Assembly: GCF_003334305.1 (NCBI RefSeq) | Contig: NZ_QOWS01000011.1 | DNA: 64,000 bases | From: Escherichia coli | Lineage (GTDB): Bacteria > Pseudomonadota > Gammaproteobacteria > Enterobacterales > Enterobacteriaceae | Reading direction: 5' to 3' (one strand) | Part shown: piece by piece, positions 2,539 through 26,943 of the stretch | Numbering within the stretch: the stretch's first letter is position 1 | Layout of the letters: each line of letters opens with the position of its first letter | Notes under the pieces: model-generated | The model's input: only the letters and a program-made list of their open reading frames with translations | What the model was told of the DNA's origin: nothing | Databases searched by the model: none | Translations under genes and position numbers: made by a program

Positions 2539-3882
2539 TTAACCTCTCACAAGCGTAATCGCGTTTTCTGTCACATCGCTGACCATGCCATCAATACTGG
2601 CATGAATGGGGGCACCTAATGTGCCGTGTGGAATTTGACCTACACATTGCCCATGAACGACGCGATCGCCTTTTTGTACACACGCAATTGCGCTGGCACC
2701 GATGTGCTGGCGTAACAATAACGTCACTTTTTCGGGCTGAGGCACCTGTTCAGACAATGGCGCATCCTGATACCACGGGGTTAAGCCAAGTCTGGTTACC
2801 AGCCGTTTTACGGGAATCAGTCGATAATTTGCCATGGGATCTGCAGGATTTAAGGCACCTTCGTAGCGGAGATTTTGTGCGCGTAATTCCTGCTTAAGCA
2901 GGCGGTTTATGCGCATTGGTGAAATTCCTACCGGACAGGCGACACTGGCGCAGACGTTGCACTCTGAACAGGTGAGCGCTGTCAGTAACAGTTGCGGCGT
3001 GGCGAGCTGTTGGTAGTTAACCGCACGTACTAATAAATGGGGTGCCAGTTCGTGACCGATTAAATGACGTGGGCAGAGATCGGTACACAAGCGGCATTGC
3101 TCACAAACAGTTTTCGCGACGGCAAGTACGCTGCGGTCATTCTGCAATCGACGTTGGATCAGTGAATGAGAGTTGGGTAAAACCAGCAAGCCGCCAGTGG
3201 TTTTGCTGACTGGTGTGTCGAGCGATGTGATCAAACTTCCCATCATCGGCCCGCCATTGATAAAACCAGGAGCATCCACTGTTGCGCCGCCCGCCAGCGC
3301 CAGGACTTCACGTAAAGACATGCCGATGGGGACGGTTACCGTTATTGGTTTCGCCACTGCACCATTAACGGTGAGTGTGCGGCGCGTCACTGGATACTGT
3401 TGCTCGACGGCTCTGGTAATATTAAGTACGGTTTGAACATTATTGACCACCACACCGACGCTAACGGGTAATGCAGCGGGTGGAACGCGGCGACCAGTTG
3501 CCATCCAGATGGTCAGCACTTCGTCTCCTGCCGGGTAAACATCGGGCAAAATATGCAGGCGGATATCCGGTGGTAACAGTGGTGTGAGTGCGTTTATTGC
3601 CCGTTGATATTTCTCTTTCAGCGCGATGATTCCGCTGCTGGCCCCGGTGGCTTTCATCGCATAGTGAACACCGCGAAGCAGGCGGCTGGCTTGCTGCGCC
3701 ATTAACTGTTGATCCACTTTCAACATGGGTTCGCATTCCGCCGCATTCACCAGGAAAGTGTCAACACGCGCTTGTAGCTTAATATGGGTTGGAAAACCTG
3801 CGCCGCCAGCACCCACGACACCTGCTGCTTGTACTCGCTCGCGGATGGTCTGGTCGTCGCAGGAGGTTAACTTGACGTTCAT
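2539..3882 (-). CDS. pduS: PduS, cobalamin reductase (flavo-iron-sulfur protein)
   Basis: 447 aa; Gly-rich nucleotide-binding loop [15 protein letters not shown]; two Cys clusters [12 protein letters not shown] and [13 protein letters not shown] typical of 4Fe-4S ferredoxin motifs. Confidence 0.85.
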
Positions 3883-8804: not shown

Positions 8805-9227
8805 CTACTCCCCTCGCTTATTGGCGTACAGGCAAAGTGAGCGGGGCTCACCTTTTTGCCGCTGACATGCCGGGTCAAGACACAAATTACAACTGATAAT
8901 CTCTGAGGTGACGGTTGTTGCTGGTGTTTTGCTTGTTTCAACCGTCACGGTCAATGCTTCAGTTGTGTGGGGCAGAATGCCGTCTCCCGGGCGGGCAATC
9001 ACTTTGTGTGCGACAAGGCCATTTCGCTGTCCGGCGAAACTGGCTCCCGTCGCGATCGCCGCATTAACCGAGGCGACGTCACCGGTGATTTTGATGAGCG
9101 TCCAGCCTGAGCCATTGGTCTTCTCAAGGCCAACCAGCGTGATGGACGCGGCTTTTGCCATAGCGTCTGCGCAACTGATGGCGAGAGCCAGACCACTGAC
9201 TTCAAGTAATCCCAGTGATTGCTTCAC
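8805..9227 (-). CDS. pduK: PduK, microcompartment shell protein with C-terminal Cys-rich extension
   Basis: 140 aa; N-terminal BMC domain (LGLLEVSGLALAISCADAMAKAA), C-terminal tail with CNLCLDPACQ...C. Confidence 0.8.
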   Translation of the reverse strand: MKQSLGLLEVSGLALAISCADAMAKAASITLVGLEKTNGSGWTLIKITGDVASVNAAIATGASFAGQRNGLVAHKVIARPGDGILPHTTEALTVTVETSKTPATTVTSEIISCNLCLDPACQRQKGEPRSLCLYANKRGE

Positions 9228-12938: not shown

Positions 12939-14603
12939 TTAGTCAATTTCGTTGGGATCAAGTGCACCGGGAATATTTTTGATCTCTTCCCAGCGTTCCC
13001 CTTGCAGGCGGTAACCTGTAGCCGGTCCGGCGTAATCATTGACGTCATTGACCGCAGAGAGCACTTGTCCGTCATCGACGATGATGGCTGAGGTATGGAG
13101 ATAATCGCCGGTCAGTTTTGCTTTTTGCATGTTGAGCATGTCCTGGGCGACATCGGTAAAACCGCCTTGCGCCAGGGCTTTCACCACTTCCAGGCTGTTC
13201 CGGTTTTTATTGATAATCTCCTGGGCGAACTTGATGTCTTCCACAATATTGCGCTCAGGCATATCTTTTGAACCGTGGGCATAGGTTGCCGCTTCGACTT
13301 CTTCATCGGTAATAGGCGGTAGTCCCATACCGGCAAAGACAGCCTGTAAAGCGCGAGCGGCTTTATTGCGGATAGCGATAACATCTTCTTCGCGTACTGG
13401 TCGCAGCCCACCATCAACCTTCAGGTCACGCTGAATGACGTTGTAATCATCGAAGTCTTCAGCATCTTCGTTTGAACCAGCAAACATGTTGTCGTAGTTC
13501 GGCACAGCGGAAAAACCGGAAGAGATAAAGTCGGTGCCTGGCAGAAATTGCATCAGGAAACGTGCGGTACGGCGCATATCCGAGTGGGTAAAGGTCTGGT
13601 CATTACTGGAGGCGCATTCCAGATCCAGCGATGAGCAAATTAAGTTTTCCGCTAATACTGCGCGGATGCCTGATGGCACAGCTGATGGAACACCGATGCA
13701 GCTTACCGAACCATTCTGCAGACCCTGAACGCCTGCGGCTTTGGTGATGTAAATGCAACGAGCCTCGAGGTAAAGCATTGATTTGCCTTCCGCGTAACCC
13801 ATCTGTACTTCAGAGCCGGAGCCGGAAGTAAAGCGCATTTTTAAGCCACGAGAAGCATAGGATGACGCGAGAAACCCTTTTGACCACGGGGTATCATCAC
13901 CATCGGTGAAAACAGGTTCTGTACCATAGACAGAAATTGTTTCGGCGTAACAGGTGTGGCCTAACATACCGAGTTTCAGTTCGGTGGCTTCTTCCAGTGA
14001 ACACTGGGTCAAGACGCCCGGACGTCCCACCTGTGAGCCGACCAGCAGGGCGATGGCGTTGAACGGTGCATAGCGAGCAACGGCAACGGTGGTTTCCTGT
14101 TCATCAAACCCGCGCCATGCGCCTTCAGCTGCGTCGGCGGCAATTTGTACTGGGTTATCTTTGACGTTGGTGACATGAGCCTGTTGTGATGGTGTTCGAC
14201 GGGCGCGCATTTTCTGCATCGCCATCATCATCTCTACCACGTTCATCTGCGAAACCACTTCGACGATTTTTGCAGGCGTCATTGCTGTGGTAAGGGGAAC
14301 GATATCGCTACGTTTGACATTTGGATCGCACAACATATTGGCAAGTTTTACCGAATCCATCGCGATGACTTCTTCGGCGCGCGCGAGATTGATGCCGTAG
14401 CGGGCGATAAAGTGGTCGATCAGGTCAAACTGGCTGGCGGGTTTTCCATCCAGTTCGGTAACGACGCCGTTAACAATTTTGATTGACGGTTTAGGATCGT
14501 TCGGGCTTTCCATCGCAATAAAGCCTTCTTCAATCCACTCTTTAACGAAACCGTCCTGGTTGACCGGGCGTTTTGCCAGTGCTTCAAATCTTTTCGATCT
14601 CAT
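12939..14603 (-). CDS. pduC: PduC, B12-dependent diol dehydratase large subunit
   Basis: 554 aa; starts MRSKRFEALAKRPVNQDGFVKEWIEEGFIAMESPNDPKPSIKIVNG, near-identical to recalled Salmonella PduC. Confidence 0.95.
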   Translation of the reverse strand: MRSKRFEALAKRPVNQDGFVKEWIEEGFIAMESPNDPKPSIKIVNGVVTELDGKPASQFDLIDHFIARYGINLARAEEVIAMDSVKLANMLCDPNVKRSDIVPLTTAMTPAKIVEVVSQMNVVEMMMAMQKMRARRTPSQQAHVTNVKDNPVQIAADAAEGAWRGFDEQETTVAVARYAPFNAIALLVGSQVGRPGVLTQCSLEEATELKLGMLGHTCYAETISVYGTEPVFTDGDDTPWSKGFLASSYASRGLKMRFTSGSGSEVQMGYAEGKSMLYLEARCIYITKAAGVQGLQNGSVSCIGVPSAVPSGIRAVLAENLICSSLDLECASSNDQTFTHSDMRRTARFLMQFLPGTDFISSGFSAVPNYDNMFAGSNEDAEDFDDYNVIQRDLKVDGGLRPVREEDVIAIRNKAARALQAVFAGMGLPPITDEEVEAATYAHGSKDMPERNIVEDIKFAQEIINKNRNSLEVVKALAQGGFTDVAQDMLNMQKAKLTGDYLHTSAIIVDDGQVLSAVNDVNDYAGPATGYRLQGERWEEIKNIPGALDPNEID

Positions 14604-14621
14604 AAATCTGCCTCAGAGAAT

Positions 14622-15434
14622 TCAGATGTAGGAAGGGCGATCGTTTTTCGGTGTATCGCCGAGAGTCGAAAGCACGGTTTTACCGATTTCGCGTGCGGAG
14701 ATGACCGCCTGGCGGACTGCGCCGGAGTCACCCGAGATAATCAGAATGACTTCATTGCTGTAGCTGGTGCCTTGAGCGGGGGAGCTGTATGCCACAACAT
14801 CCACATTGGCGGACTTCAGCGCGGTGTCGGCCATCAGAACACCCACAGCGGCTGGAGCGCCGACAATAACGCCGCAAGCCCGTCCCAATGGTGCACCAAA
14901 CGCTTTTTCCAGTGCATAGCTGGCGCGGGCGGTATATTGCAGCTCAAGATGTCCGGCTTCGTTGGCATAGACATCGCCAAAGGTCCGATCGAGTTCTTTC
15001 AGGGCGACTTCAATACCGCGTTTCACGTCAGAAACATCGTTGCCACCTAAGAGGATCAATGAGCCATGTCCGGCACCGCCTTTAGTATCCCGAGGAAGTT
15101 CAATGCTAATAACTTCAGTGTTGGTGGCTTTTACCGCTTCATCAGCGGCCATAATGTGTGGCCCTGCGCCAATACGCGCACCCAGAATGCCAATGGAACG
15201 ATAGCGTTTTTCAAGTTTCATCGCGTCCAACAGGGCGCTATCAACGTTCGCAATGACCAGACCTACAGTGTCGCCAATAGCGGTGCCAACAAATTCCGTT
15301 AACGTGCAGCTTTTTTCTGCCATAGCCGTCTCTCGTGTTTGATGAGTGGTTTCCGGGAGAACCTCATGCTCTGGCGTCGCTACGCGAGCGATGACCTGCG
15401 CCATGATCTGTTCGACCAGTTCATTGCTGCTCAT
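14622..15434 (-). CDS. pduB: PduB, microcompartment shell protein (tandem permuted BMC domains); internal start for PduB' at 15323
   Basis: 270 aa; in-frame Met at codon 38 ([13 protein letters not shown]) corresponds to the PduB' start described in Salmonella. Confidence 0.9.
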
Positions 15435-15715
15435 GGGTTAATTCCCTTTGGTAAGATTTTTTCGACATCGGTATGTGGGCGGGGAATAACGTGTACGGCT
15501 TTTACTTCACCGACGTTACGCGCAGCTGCGGCACCTGCGTCTGTTGCCGCTTTTACCGCCCCGACATCACCACGAACGATGACGGTCACCAGCCCGGAAC
15601 CTATTTTTTCGTAGCCGACCAGCAAAACATTTGCCGACTTCACCATGGCGTCTGCGGCCTCTATGGCGGCAGTTAAGCCTTTGGTTTCTACCATTCCTAA
15701 CGCTTCTTGTTGCAT
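15431..15715 (-). CDS. pduA: PduA, microcompartment shell protein
   Basis: 94 aa; [30 protein letters not shown], canonical BMC domain; first gene of operon. Confidence 0.95.
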
Positions 15716-16226
15716 AAAGACCTCGCCTGGATTTTTTTGACGATATGACTATAAAAAAAAGCGAGGAAAAAGAATGGCTGACTTAATCGGCTAATGAGAA
15801 AAATTAATAGAGAACAAATATTATAAAATTGCTTTTATGAACTATATGTTGTTAATTTATTAGTTGTTTTGTGGATATTTCAATGTGAATTAATTGCGTT
15901 GGCTAGTGAGTTTAATCGCGAGTAATATTTCGTTGAGTTTAGTTCGAGGAAGGAACTGTGATATTTGTTTCAATTTTATTATATCATGATGGCAATTTTT
16001 TATTGTGAAAGTTTGACAGTAATTATTACTTTCAACACTGATTAACGCTGTGTTGCATGATTCGGCAATGACAATAATTTGTTATGTTAGCACGATTTTT
16101 ACACGAGTCTGTCATGCATGTTGGCAATATTTTCTGCAGAGCAATTTTTTATAGTTGCGCTCGGTATACACAACAATCAGCGCATAGTTGGCTGATAAAG
16201 AAAAACTCCGTAAAGAAGGTGTCACT
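15716..16226. promoter_or_regulatory. divergent pduA / pduF control region (expected PocR-dependent promoters)
   Basis: ~510 bp AT-rich non-coding spacer between divergently transcribed pduA and pduF; individual promoter elements not resolved by eye. Confidence 0.5.
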
Positions 16227-17036
16227 ATGAATGATTCACTCAAGGCGCAATGCGTTGCCGAGTTTTTAGGCACCGGACTGTTCCTCTTTTTTGGCATCGG
16301 TTGTTTGTGCGCCCTGAAACTTGCCGGGGCAAGTCTGGGACTGTGGGAAATTTGTATCATTTGGGGGTTAGGGATTTCGCTTGCTGTTTACCTTACGGCA
16401 GGTATTTCCGGCGCTCATCTCAACCCGGCTGTTACCATTGCTCTGTGGCTGTTTGCCTCTTTCCCAGCCCGTAAAGTGCTGCCATTTTGTGTGGCGCAAT
16501 TAGCGGGTGCCTTTGGTGGTGCGGTTCTGGCATATTCTCTATACAGCAGTTTGTTTACCGATTTTGAATCTGCTCACAATATGGTGCGTGGTAGTGCAGA
16601 AAGTTTACAACTCGTCAGTATCTTCAGTACTTATCCGGCAGCGGCGATTAATGTATGGCAAGCTGCGTTGGTCGAAGTGGTCATAACGTCCATGTTAATG
16701 GGGTTGATTATGGCGTTGACCGATGACGGTAATGGCGTACCCAAAGGACCGCTTGCACCTTTACTTATTGGTATTCTGGTTGCTGTTATTGGTGCTTCTA
16801 CCGGACCATTAACCGGTTTTGCCATGAATCCAGCGCGTGATTTTGGACCTAAGATTTTCACCTGGCTTGCGGGGTGGGGAGAAATTGCGATGACTGGTGG
16901 ACGCAATATTCCTTATTTCATTGTACCCATTATTGCACCGATCATTGGGGCATGTGTTGGTGCGGCGATTTATCGCTATCTCATTGCAAAGAATTTACCT
17001 GTCAATAGTGTTACACCTAAAGGAATTAGCGAATAA
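16227..17036 (+). CDS. pduF: PduF, propanediol diffusion facilitator (MIP/aquaglyceroporin family)
   Basis: ATG at 16227 with GAAGGTG upstream gives 269 aa starting MNDSLKAQC; NPA motifs (HLNPAVT, MNPARD). Confidence 0.9.
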   Translation: MNDSLKAQCVAEFLGTGLFLFFGIGCLCALKLAGASLGLWEICIIWGLGISLAVYLTAGISGAHLNPAVTIALWLFASFPARKVLPFCVAQLAGAFGGAVLAYSLYSSLFTDFESAHNMVRGSAESLQLVSIFSTYPAAAINVWQAALVEVVITSMLMGLIMALTDDGNGVPKGPLAPLLIGILVAVIGASTGPLTGFAMNPARDFGPKIFTWLAGWGEIAMTGGRNIPYFIVPIIAPIIGACVGAAIYRYLIAKNLPVNSVTPKGISE

Positions 17037-17238
17037 CGAAATACTCTGGCAGTTATAAACATTTATTTTTTTACTGTTTGTGATCTGCTTTCCGAACTTA
17101 TTAAAAAGTCTCCCGCTTCACGGAGGCTTTTGTTATTGTCCTTTGTGCTTCTCGTCAGTAAATCATCAGGGATGATGTGAAGATTAAATGTAAAACAATT
17201 GTTTTGCTATAACAATAAATTAACTGGGAGGTTTTATC

Positions 17239-18153: not shown

Positions 18154-18269
18154 AATAAATGCTAAAAAAAGGGAAGGTTTAAATAAACGCTGGAATGAAT
18201 AATTAACGTTATTTACGTGTTATGGGAAAAGTGAAATCAGCTCATAACATACGCTGACAGGTGTGGCAC

Positions 18270-18470
18270 ATTTGTGCCTGGGAAGAGGGTGAAAATCCCT
18301 CGCAGCCCCCGCTGCTGTAATGCTGACAAACCCGAAAATGCCACTGATCGCGAGATTGGGAAGGTCGGGTGAGGATGACGCTAAGCCAGAAGACCAGTCT
18401 GTCAGTCAATACCAACAACTTCGGTGGGAAGTGGGTTGCCCGGAAGCGTCCGGTAGAGTACTGGCGCGTC
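18270..18470 (+). ncRNA. cobalamin (AdoCbl) riboswitch-like leader, cob-operon type
   Basis: Conserved riboswitch core GGAAGAGGGTGAAAATCCCTCGCAGCCCCCGCTGCTGTAA at 18281-18320, GCCACTG at 18340-18346, B12-box-like AGCCAGAAGACCAG at 18383-18396; boundaries approximate. Confidence 0.6.
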
Positions 18471-18565: not shown

Positions 18566-19072
18566 GTGGCAATATTGTTTCATGGCTTATCAACCAGACC
18601 GCCATTACAGGAAATTAAGTGGAGGGCGAGAGGCATGAAAACGATAAAACCCGAATCGATAGCTCTTTTTTGCCTCTTATCTGGAGATGTGGATCTGGCG
18701 AAACATCTGGCTGAAATATTGCCAATAACCTGTTTTGTTGGTGAGGACTGGCAGCAAGATTTCCAGCCTCTTGATGGTGGGCCTGTGCAATCGTTATCAG
18801 ATGCGTATAGCGATTATTCAGTGCTGCTATTGATAGCAGCTGAAAGCGAGATATCCGTACCAGAATGGCTCGCTCATTCTGAGGGAACGACGGTAATTTT
18901 GATTGCAGAACACAATGCCCGTTTGCTGACTGGTCCGGCTGGTGGGGCTGTAGCATTAATCCATTATCTGAATGAAATCTGTCATTCCAGAGAAACCGCT
19001 GTCAATGACGCATTTTGTCAGACGTTAACACGAGGAAGTCTGGCTATTCCACATAGCCATCTTCTTTCGTAA
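18566..19072 (+). CDS. hypothetical protein (168 aa), unassigned ORF at the position occupied by cbi genes in Salmonella
   Basis: ORF track only; no motif recognised; sits between riboswitch-like leader and cobU. Confidence 0.3.
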   Translation: MAILFHGLSTRPPLQEIKWRARGMKTIKPESIALFCLLSGDVDLAKHLAEILPITCFVGEDWQQDFQPLDGGPVQSLSDAYSDYSVLLLIAAESEISVPEWLAHSEGTTVILIAEHNARLLTGPAGGAVALIHYLNEICHSRETAVNDAFCQTLTRGSLAIPHSHLLS

Positions 19073-21643: not shown

Positions 21644-22579
21644 ATGATGCGTCGTGTAAATATTTTTTGCTCATTTGCTCTACTTTTTGCCAGCCATACT
21701 AGCCTGGCGGTAACTTATCCATTACCTCCAGAGGGTAGCCGTTTAGTGGGGCAGTCGTTTACTGTAACTGTTCCTGATCACAATACCCAGCCGCTGGAGA
21801 CTTTTGCCGCACAATACGGGCAAGGGTTAAGTAACATGCTGGAAGCGAACCCGGGCGCTGATGTTTTTTTGCCGAAGTCTGGCTCGCAACTCACCATTCC
21901 GCAGCAACTGATTTTGCCCGCCACTGTTCGTAAAGGGATTGTGGTTAACGTCGCTGAGATGCGTCTTTATTACTACCCACCAGACAGTAATACTGTGGAA
22001 GTCTTTCCTATTGGTATCGGCCAGGCTGGGCGAGAAACCCCGCGTAACTGGGTGACTACCGTTGAACGTAAACAAGAAGCTCCAACCTGGACGCCAACGC
22101 CGAACACTCGGCGCGAATATGCGAAACGAGGGGAGAGTTTGCCCGCATTTGTTCCTGCGGGCCCCGATAATCCCATGGGGCTGTACGCGATTTATATTGG
22201 CAGGTTGTATGCCATCCATGGTACCAATGCCAATTTTGGTATTGGGCTCCGGGTAAGTCAGGGCTGTATTCGTCTGCGCAATGACGATATCAAATATCTG
22301 TTTGATAATGTTCCTGTTGGGACGCGTGTGCAAATTATCGACCAGCCAGTAAAATACACCACTGAACCAGATGGCTCGAACTGGCTGGAAGTTCATGAGC
22401 CGTTGTCGCGCAATCGTGCAGAATATGAGTCTGACCGAAAAGTGCCATTGCCGGTAACCCCATCTTTGCGGGCGTTTATCAGCGGGCAAGAAGTTGATGT
22501 AAATCGCGCAAATGCTGCGTTGCAACGTCGATCGGGAATGCCTGTGCAAATTAGTTCTGGTTCAAGACAGATGTTTTAA
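21644..22579 (+). CDS. ldtA: L,D-transpeptidase LdtA (ErfK)
   Basis: 311 aa; signal peptide then YkuD-type catalytic region with HGT...SQGCIRL; matches recalled E. coli ErfK. Confidence 0.85.
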
Positions 22580-22634: not shown

Positions 22635-22710
22635 TGGCTCCTCTGACTGGACTCGAACCAGTGACATACGGATTAACAGTCCGCCGTTCTACCGACTGAA
22701 CTACAGAGGA
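22635..22710 (-). tRNA. asnV: tRNA-Asn (GUU)
   Basis: 76-nt reverse complement of TCCTCTGTAGTTCAGTCGGTAGAACGGCGGACTGTTAATCCGTATGTCACTGGTTCGAGTCCAGTCAGAGGAGCCA; anticodon loop CTGTTAA. Confidence 0.95.
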
Positions 22711-25043: not shown

Positions 25044-25119
25044 TGGCTCCTCTGACTGGACTCGAACCAGTGACATACGGATTAACAGTCCGCCGTTCTA
25101 CCGACTGAACTACAGAGGA
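25044..25119 (-). tRNA. asnU: tRNA-Asn (GUU)
   Basis: Sequence identical to the tRNA at 22635-22710. Confidence 0.95.
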
Positions 25120-26867: not shown

Positions 26868-26943
26868 TCCTCTGTAGTTCAGTCGGTAGAACGGCGGACT
26901 GTTAATCCGTATGTCACTGGTTCGAGTCCAGTCAGAGGAGCCA
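26868..26943 (+). tRNA. asnW: tRNA-Asn (GUU)
   Basis: TCCTCTGTAGTTCAGTCGGTAGAACGGCGGACTGTTAATCCGTATGTCACTGGTTCGAGTCCAGTCAGAGGAGCCA, identical to the other two copies. Confidence 0.95.

Follow-up and report, generated by a model that had tools for sequence, protein, structure and literature searches.

The closest described systems are the pduB genes of Salmonella and Citrobacter. In PMC3836489, the Salmonella pduB gene is described as carrying two initiation sites that lie 111 bp apart, the first of which overlaps the stop codon of pduA, and the same source cites Havemann and Bobik (2003) for two in-frame starts as the origin of PduB and PduB'. Expression of Salmonella pduAB in an E. coli host gave two PduB forms (PMC3836489). 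In microcompartments of C. freundii, PduB' and PduB accounted for 31% and 18% of the shell protein, and these values were 28% and 24%, respectively, when the C. freundii operon was expressed in E. coli (PMC5109269). The two species, of ~28 and ~24 kDa, are known only for the Salmonella and Citrobacter genes (PMC5109269, PMC9132943, PMC3836489). A Salmonella strain without PduB' was made by swapping the PduB' start codon for GCT, and a Salmonella deletion of codons 1–37 that kept the internal ribosome-binding site (RBS) and ATG was described as expressing PduB' (PMC9132943). Residues 1–37 of PduB act as a shell-to-core linker in Salmonella (PMC9132943, PMC11463388), with residues 1–22 as a signal-sequence-like amphipathic helix and residues 23–37 as the linker proper (PMC11463388).

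We analyzed a stretch of 64,000 nucleotides of E. coli DNA (contig NZ_QOWS01000011.1 of assembly GCF_003334305.1), hereafter called the window. An earlier note on this DNA had proposed a conserved internal start for PduB', as in Salmonella, within positions 15321–15434, which correspond to pduB codons 1–38. The in-frame ATG that the note placed at codon 38 was borne out by the sequence and by the list of open reading frames (ORFs) (Table 1). The gene is the same and stands in the same place (pduA-pduB-pduC) as in Salmonella enterica LT2 and Citrobacter freundii, with the same ATGA overlap at the first start and a second ATG likewise located 111 nt downstream, at codon 38. Residues 1–22 are near-identical to those of the Salmonella and Citrobacter PduB, and the whole proteins are 86–92% identical. 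In contrast, linker residues 23–33 differ; the Salmonella/Citrobacter side reads EQQAIPGQPQPI, whereas the E. coli window has another sequence. Around the internal ATG, the 32 nt from −14 to +18, ACGAGAGACGGCTATGGCAGAAAAAAGCTGCA, are identical in the window and in the S. enterica locus L083.

Judged by these comparisons, the window pduB is an ortholog of the known two-start pduB, and is a family member rather than a functional look-alike. Since it is an ortholog of the Salmonella and Citrobacter gene, the two-start pduB reported here is already a known one. The window gene has all of the defining features of a two-start pduB that can be tested in silico, a canonical Shine-Dalgarno (SD) sequence aside. 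The E. coli pdu operon stops at pduV without pduW or pduX, matching the RefSeq record, unlike the Salmonella pdu operon, which has both pduW and pduX.

The pduB gene and its operon in the window

Two curated equivalog models assign the product of the full-length ORF as PduB. NF011944 (NCBIfam PduB equivalog) scored 475 bits against a cut-off of 173 over residues 3–270 of the window protein, and TIGR04501 (PduB equivalog) scored 397.7 bits against a cut-off of 310, covering only residues 46–270. The family PF00936 was precomputed for P0001, a cluster near-identical to the window PduB. A phmmer search matched 4fay (L. reuteri PduB; E 2e-79 over residues 40–270) and 3io0 (EtuB; E 3e-79). Because these solved structures align from residues 40 and 44 of the window PduB onward, respectively, Met38 marks where the BMC-T body begins, with residues 1–37 as an add-on. 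From the full-length alignment to the solved structures we infer a tandem BMC arrangement in PduB.

Table 1. Features of the pduB region, with window positions, and sequences found upstream of the internal ATG in each lineage.
Feature	Position	Strand	Remarks
pduB, full-length ORF	14622..15434	minus	270 codons plus stop; BMC-T shell protein, predicted tandem BMC domains
First start codon (ATG) of pduB	15432..15434	minus	Overlaps the pduA stop as ATGA, 15431–15434
SD-like AAGGGA for the first pduB start	15443..15448	minus	Inside the 3' end of pduA
N-terminal extension, pduB codons 1–37	15324..15434	minus	Only in full-length PduB
Internal in-frame ATG, codon 38	15321..15323	minus	Proposed PduB' start; 111 nt past the first start
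GAGAG	15330..15334	minus	At −11..−7 of the internal ATG; Arg34 CGA plus Glu35 GAG
Putative internal translation-initiation region, codons 34–48	15291..15335	minus	Gene-wide minimum of synonymous variation
PduB' coding part	14622..15323	minus	233 codons plus stop; BMC-T body alone
pduA	15431..15715	minus	Shell gene upstream of pduB; 94 codons; stop overlaps the first pduB start
Internal SD position, Firmicutes (Listeria, Enterococcus, Veillonella, Bacillaceae)	~−14 to −7		GGAGG, AAGGAG or GGAG
Internal SD position, Vibrio, Aeromonas, Tolumonas, Sodalis-like	~−14 to −7		CGAGG or AGAGG; −6 to −7 kcal/mol; Arg-Gly
Internal SD position, Enterobacteriaceae including the window	~−14 to −7		CGAGAG, CGAGAA or CGAGAT; Arg-Glu or Arg-Asp

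The AAGGGA element of the first pduB start occupies −14..−9 relative to its ATG. Its duplex with the 16S 3' end was calculated at −5.3 kcal/mol, a value that nearly all enteric loci share, and the element is also conserved in A2.

Many E. coli chromosomes, those of strains 210221272 and ECC-1470 among them, match the 1.8 kb around pduB (14400–16200) with 100% identity, and 644 of 5426 complete E. coli genomes contain it; the identical E. coli DNA is annotated in RefSeq as pduA, pduB, and pduC. In identical or 99% identical E. coli DNA, the RefSeq order of the neighborhood is pduV-U-T-S-Q-P-O-N-M-L-K-J-H-G-E-D-C-B-A, with pduF and pocR divergent from the pdu operon, beyond which come a cobalamin riboswitch and cobUST. 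Compared with the matching RefSeq record, the window is collinear except for an IS30 in the pduS of the record, whereas the window pduS is intact with 447 codons. These observations, therefore, indicate that pduB stands in an apparently complete operon, and every ORF from pduA to pduV is intact in the window.

Several features of the neighborhood were also observed. The intact pduS lies at 2539–3882 (minus), while that of E. coli strain 210221272 is split by IS30 (L082, 7045–8265), and strain Ec1120 carries an IS1A within the pduA–pduC stretch (window 14400–16200). Thus, in some strains, insertion sequences are disabling the pdu island. The operon ends with pduV (1184–1627) and adjoins tmaR (yeeX) in the flank below ~1100. 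For pduK (8805–9227, minus), the ORF list gives a GTG start and 140 aa, and RefSeq gives 149 aa in the matching record; for Salmonella pduK, two possible starts were described, namely, an AUG located 3 bp past the pduJ stop and a GUG that lies 21 bp downstream and has a plausible RBS (PMC3836489). A cobalamin riboswitch (Rfam RF00174, 107.8 bits) was found at 18242–18416 (+), followed by a short ORF at 18566–19072 (+), where the matching RefSeq record places cobU, cobS, and cobT after a 438-nt 'cobalamin biosynthesis protein'. The riboswitch and short ORF look like what is left of a cbi operon leader, most of the cbi genes being absent. Furthermore, the enterobacterial sRNA STnc230 matched at 17095–17178 (−) with 74.8 bits (Rfam gathering score 50), in the pduF–pocR intergenic region and antisense to the direction of those genes. 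Farther away, three tRNA-Asn (GTT) genes were found at 22635–22710 (−), 25044–25119 (−), and 26868–26943 (+). Positions 22000–46000 contain yeeO and, from the yersiniabactin high-pathogenicity island, irp1, fyuA, and ybtE; this segment matches E. coli strain A7 with 100% identity, and 1782 of 5426 genomes cover 80% or more of it.

Conservation of the internal methionine

Next, the internal methionine was analyzed in an alignment of 106 full-length PduB homologs with 86 distinct N-termini. Met38 was found in the exact alignment column in 92 of the 106 sequences and within three residues of it (columns 35–41) in 102. The conservation profile of the N-terminus showed a conserved helix region at approximately residues 4–18, followed by a variable Pro/Thr-rich linker, and the majority residue of linker columns 19–37 occurred in only 15–54% of the sequences. 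This conservation of residues 6–18 and variability of residues 19–37 fit the helix-plus-linker description of PduB 1–37.

At the DNA level, 80 pduB loci were compared, taken from contigs of one genome per species. An ATG was present at the internal-start position in 78 of them, 6–8 codons before the invariant TEF motif, and these ATG-bearing loci span Enterobacteriaceae, Vibrio, Aeromonas, Listeria, Enterococcus, Veillonella, and others. Of the two exceptions, one was cut by a contig end, and the other, L073 from Anaerosolibacter carboniphilus, had no ATG. With this distribution, the codon-38 ATG is judged to be more than a chance methionine. Met11 was also considered as an alternative start and was rejected; it is kept in only 69% of the homologs and has no SD-like sequence upstream.

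In Firmicute pduB genes (Listeria, Enterococcus, Veillonella, and Brevibacillus), an extension of 28–42 residues precedes an internal Met with the same spacing (7–8 codons) from the invariant TEF motif as in the window. In five Veillonella loci, L075, L076, L078, L079, and L081 (from Veillonella rogosae and uncultured Veillonella), pduB was present in the short form only. As shown by their sequences, these genes begin at the Met38 equivalent, at ~1480–1520 in each locus, with GGAGGG 6 nt before the ATG; the in-frame upstream sequence meets a stop codon, and the N-terminal tether is lacking. In other Veillonella loci (L059, L061–L066, and L072), the gene is of the long form and contains AAGGAG-ATG internally. 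The short-only Veillonella proteins and EtuB (3io0) have the same BMC-T body, beginning at or shortly after the Met38 equivalent, with a single start and no extension, and so correspond to PduB' alone. The short-only genes are a mildly new, descriptive observation.

Homologs of the opposite kind were observed as well. In L073 and in the homologs P0080, P0100, P0108, and P0115, the extension is kept and Met is missing from the internal-start position and its vicinity; some Met-less homologs carry Val there, possibly encoded by GTG. These homologs would be natural tests of the dispensability of PduB'.

The distribution of short and long genes bears on whether a shorter PduB could arise by proteolytic loss of the flexible N-terminal 37 residues with no internal initiation. 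Residues 19–37 form the variable Pro/Thr-rich linker, which is described as unstructured (PMC11463388) and could be accessible to proteases. However, the Salmonella strain devoid of PduB' was built through the GCT swap of a start codon, and removal of codons 1–37 with retention of the internal RBS and ATG was described as giving PduB' (PMC9132943). Moreover, GGAGG or GAGG at the right distance is conserved in many lineages, and the short-only genes of the five Veillonella loci begin at the Met38 equivalent itself. We consider proteolysis extremely improbable as the source of the shorter form, and initiation at the internal ATG is the preferred explanation.

In-frame internal starts that give a short isoform without an N-terminal interaction domain are also found in infB (IF2 alpha/beta), clpB, and cheA, where the two products of a single ORF have their C-terminal body in common. 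These proteins are unrelated to PduB, such that the analogy is one of mechanism only.

Nucleotide signals around the proposed internal start

The 24 nt preceding the internal ATG were then aligned across all loci, and the duplex energy with the 16S 3' end was computed. Of the loci, 15 carry GGAGG, 21 have a 4-mer core, and 42 have only a 3-mer. The strongest signals were those of Firmicutes, where canonical GGAGG or AAGGAG gives −8 to −10.7 kcal/mol, a pairing equaled at few, if any, further positions of the gene, and the SD is encoded by conserved Gly-Gly or Lys-Gly codons. In contrast, the window has only GAGAG before the internal ATG, with a 3-bp pairing of −3.0 kcal/mol, and ~40% of the positions of the same gene pair equally well. 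By this duplex calculation, a canonical SD was absent before the internal ATG of the window, and it was ruled out as the signal for the enteric internal start, as the pairing is no better than the gene background. Accordingly, the internal-start claim rests on conservation, on synonymous constraint, and on identity with the Salmonella site. Since Salmonella and Citrobacter likewise have only a weak GAGAG-type element, a canonical SD is no defining feature of the enteric family. The GAGAG is best regarded as a degenerate SD remnant, the same position being held by GGAGG in Firmicutes and by GAGG in Vibrio, Aeromonas, and Sodalis. The resulting gradient, with GGAGG in Firmicutes, GAGG as the intermediate, and GAGA in enterics, is mildly new at a descriptive level.

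Synonymous variation was analyzed in 37 unique Enterobacteriaceae pduB genes. The mean synonymous-codon entropy of codons 34–48 was 0.38, compared to 1.02 for pduB, and none of 20,000 permutation samples was as low (p < 5e-5). The four lowest 12-codon windows of the gene begin at codons 34–37, and the next minima were codons 1–12, which contain the first start and the pduA overlap, and codons 259–270, just before the pduC start. Thus, the three dips in synonymous variation coincide with three translation-initiation regions. Arg34 (15333–15335, minus strand, in the window) is CGA in 37/37 unique enteric genes, while CGA accounts for 9/406 (2%) at the other eleven conserved Arg positions; the 37 sequences are kin, and the codon invariance partly reflects shared ancestry, yet the other Arg codons vary freely. 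TTA (Leu45) and TGC (Cys43) are likewise invariant in enteric pduB. The bases flanking the internal ATG appear to be under selection at the nucleotide level, a feature that the window gene shares with the family. The invariant rare CGA codon and the synonymous-variation minimum at the internal start are further descriptive observations that are mildly new.

Folding of the mRNA was considered in the same region. After the internal ATG, an A/U-rich run follows (GCA GAA AAA AGC TGC ACG TTA ACG GAA TTT). In 73 of 74 loci, a 45-nt window placed over the internal start showed less folding than the median of the windows downstream, and the openness of the site had its median at the 93rd percentile across the 74 loci. 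In the sequence of the window itself, it reached the 63rd–76th percentile, which is suggestive of an open internal start but is not decisive.

These signals also bear on whether the internal site might be silent or negligible in this E. coli, with Met38 kept only because the folded BMC-T body begins with it and with the SD decayed, so that essentially full-length PduB alone would be made. Such a reading would agree with a pairing of −3.0 kcal/mol that does not rise above the gene background and with the position of Met38, which adjoins the start of the conserved domain. Nevertheless, the identical weak-SD sequence, from −14 to +18, is that of the Salmonella site reported to yield PduB' (PMC3836489, PMC9132943), and the Salmonella and Citrobacter genes give both forms in recombinant E. 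coli (PMC3836489, PMC5109269). Furthermore, a structural requirement for Met would leave the synonymous constraint of codons 34–48 and the invariant CGA unexplained. We therefore hold a silent site to be very unlikely and retain an active internal start as the better reading.

A separate transcript for PduB', arising at a promoter inside pduA or in the 5' portion of pduB, was also weighed. Scanning of 15200–16250 for sigma-70-like promoters gave two matches, at the level expected by chance, and neither pduA nor pduB contained one on the minus strand; the absence of such a site on the minus strand over 15323–15715 comes from a consensus-only scan and is a weak test. In addition, the constraint is centered on the initiation region itself. 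An internal promoter is thus highly improbable in our view, and it would merely modify the main explanation, because a second transcript would use the same ATG.

Taken with these results, the view of the earlier note that codon 38 is a conserved internal start for PduB' as in Salmonella is supported by the identity of −14 to +18 with S. enterica, and it is further backed by the Met, the SD-like element, and the suppressed synonymous variation common to the relatives.

Proposed synthesis of PduB and PduB' and its implications

We propose that the window pduB is very probably a two-start gene on one operon mRNA, yielding both PduB and PduB'. Its anatomy, conservation, constraint, and identity with Salmonella were computed here, and initiation and the function of residues 1–37 are taken from the published work cited above. 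Ribosomes would start at the first ATG (15434–15432) to produce the 270-residue PduB, probably coupled to pduA termination through the ATGA overlap with AAGGGA upstream, and independent initiation at the codon-38 ATG (15323–15321) would produce the 233-residue PduB'. The internal initiation region, placed within the coding sequence, would consist of the GAGAG remnant, the ATG, and then the A/U-rich, weakly folded stretch. Both proteins would share the tandem-BMC body, assemble through it, and, as trimers, tile the microcompartment shell. The 37-residue extension would be confined to full-length PduB, where its amphipathic helix and flexible linker would connect the enzyme core with the shell, and PduB' would be a bare shell tile; the mix of PduB and PduB' would set the number of tethers on the shell. 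On the basis of orthology, we infer that both proteins are made by this E. coli strain, in some ratio of the two.

The enteric internal start has a decayed SD (ancestral-looking GAGG/GGAGG to GAGA), yet it has the strongest synonymous constraint of pduB, and an invariant CGA sits four codons upstream of its ATG. It is conceivable, although we regard it as unlikely, that enterics set the PduB:PduB' ratio otherwise than by SD pairing. As one candidate, SD-independent initiation could occur on the A-rich, unstructured site. Alternatively, slow decoding of CGA by ribosomes from the first start could transiently cover or expose the internal ATG, thereby coupling both starts. If ratio control of this SD-independent kind is true, the extent to which the shell is tethered to the cargo would likewise be set otherwise than by SD pairing.

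As a discovery, the present result carries little weight, since the PduB/PduB' pair has been described since 2003 and the tether role of residues 1–37 has been worked out in Salmonella. Annotation pipelines give only the long PduB product. The pdu island is reported in pathobiont E. coli, and correct models of shell composition would, therefore, be of some practical value for microcompartment engineering. The mark that the internal start leaves on the DNA, namely, SD-coding dipeptides in Firmicutes and a synonymous minimum with a rare codon in enterics, may serve as a template for the search for other two-start genes. For E. coli itself, the pdu island would carry the two-start device unchanged, in an intact operon.
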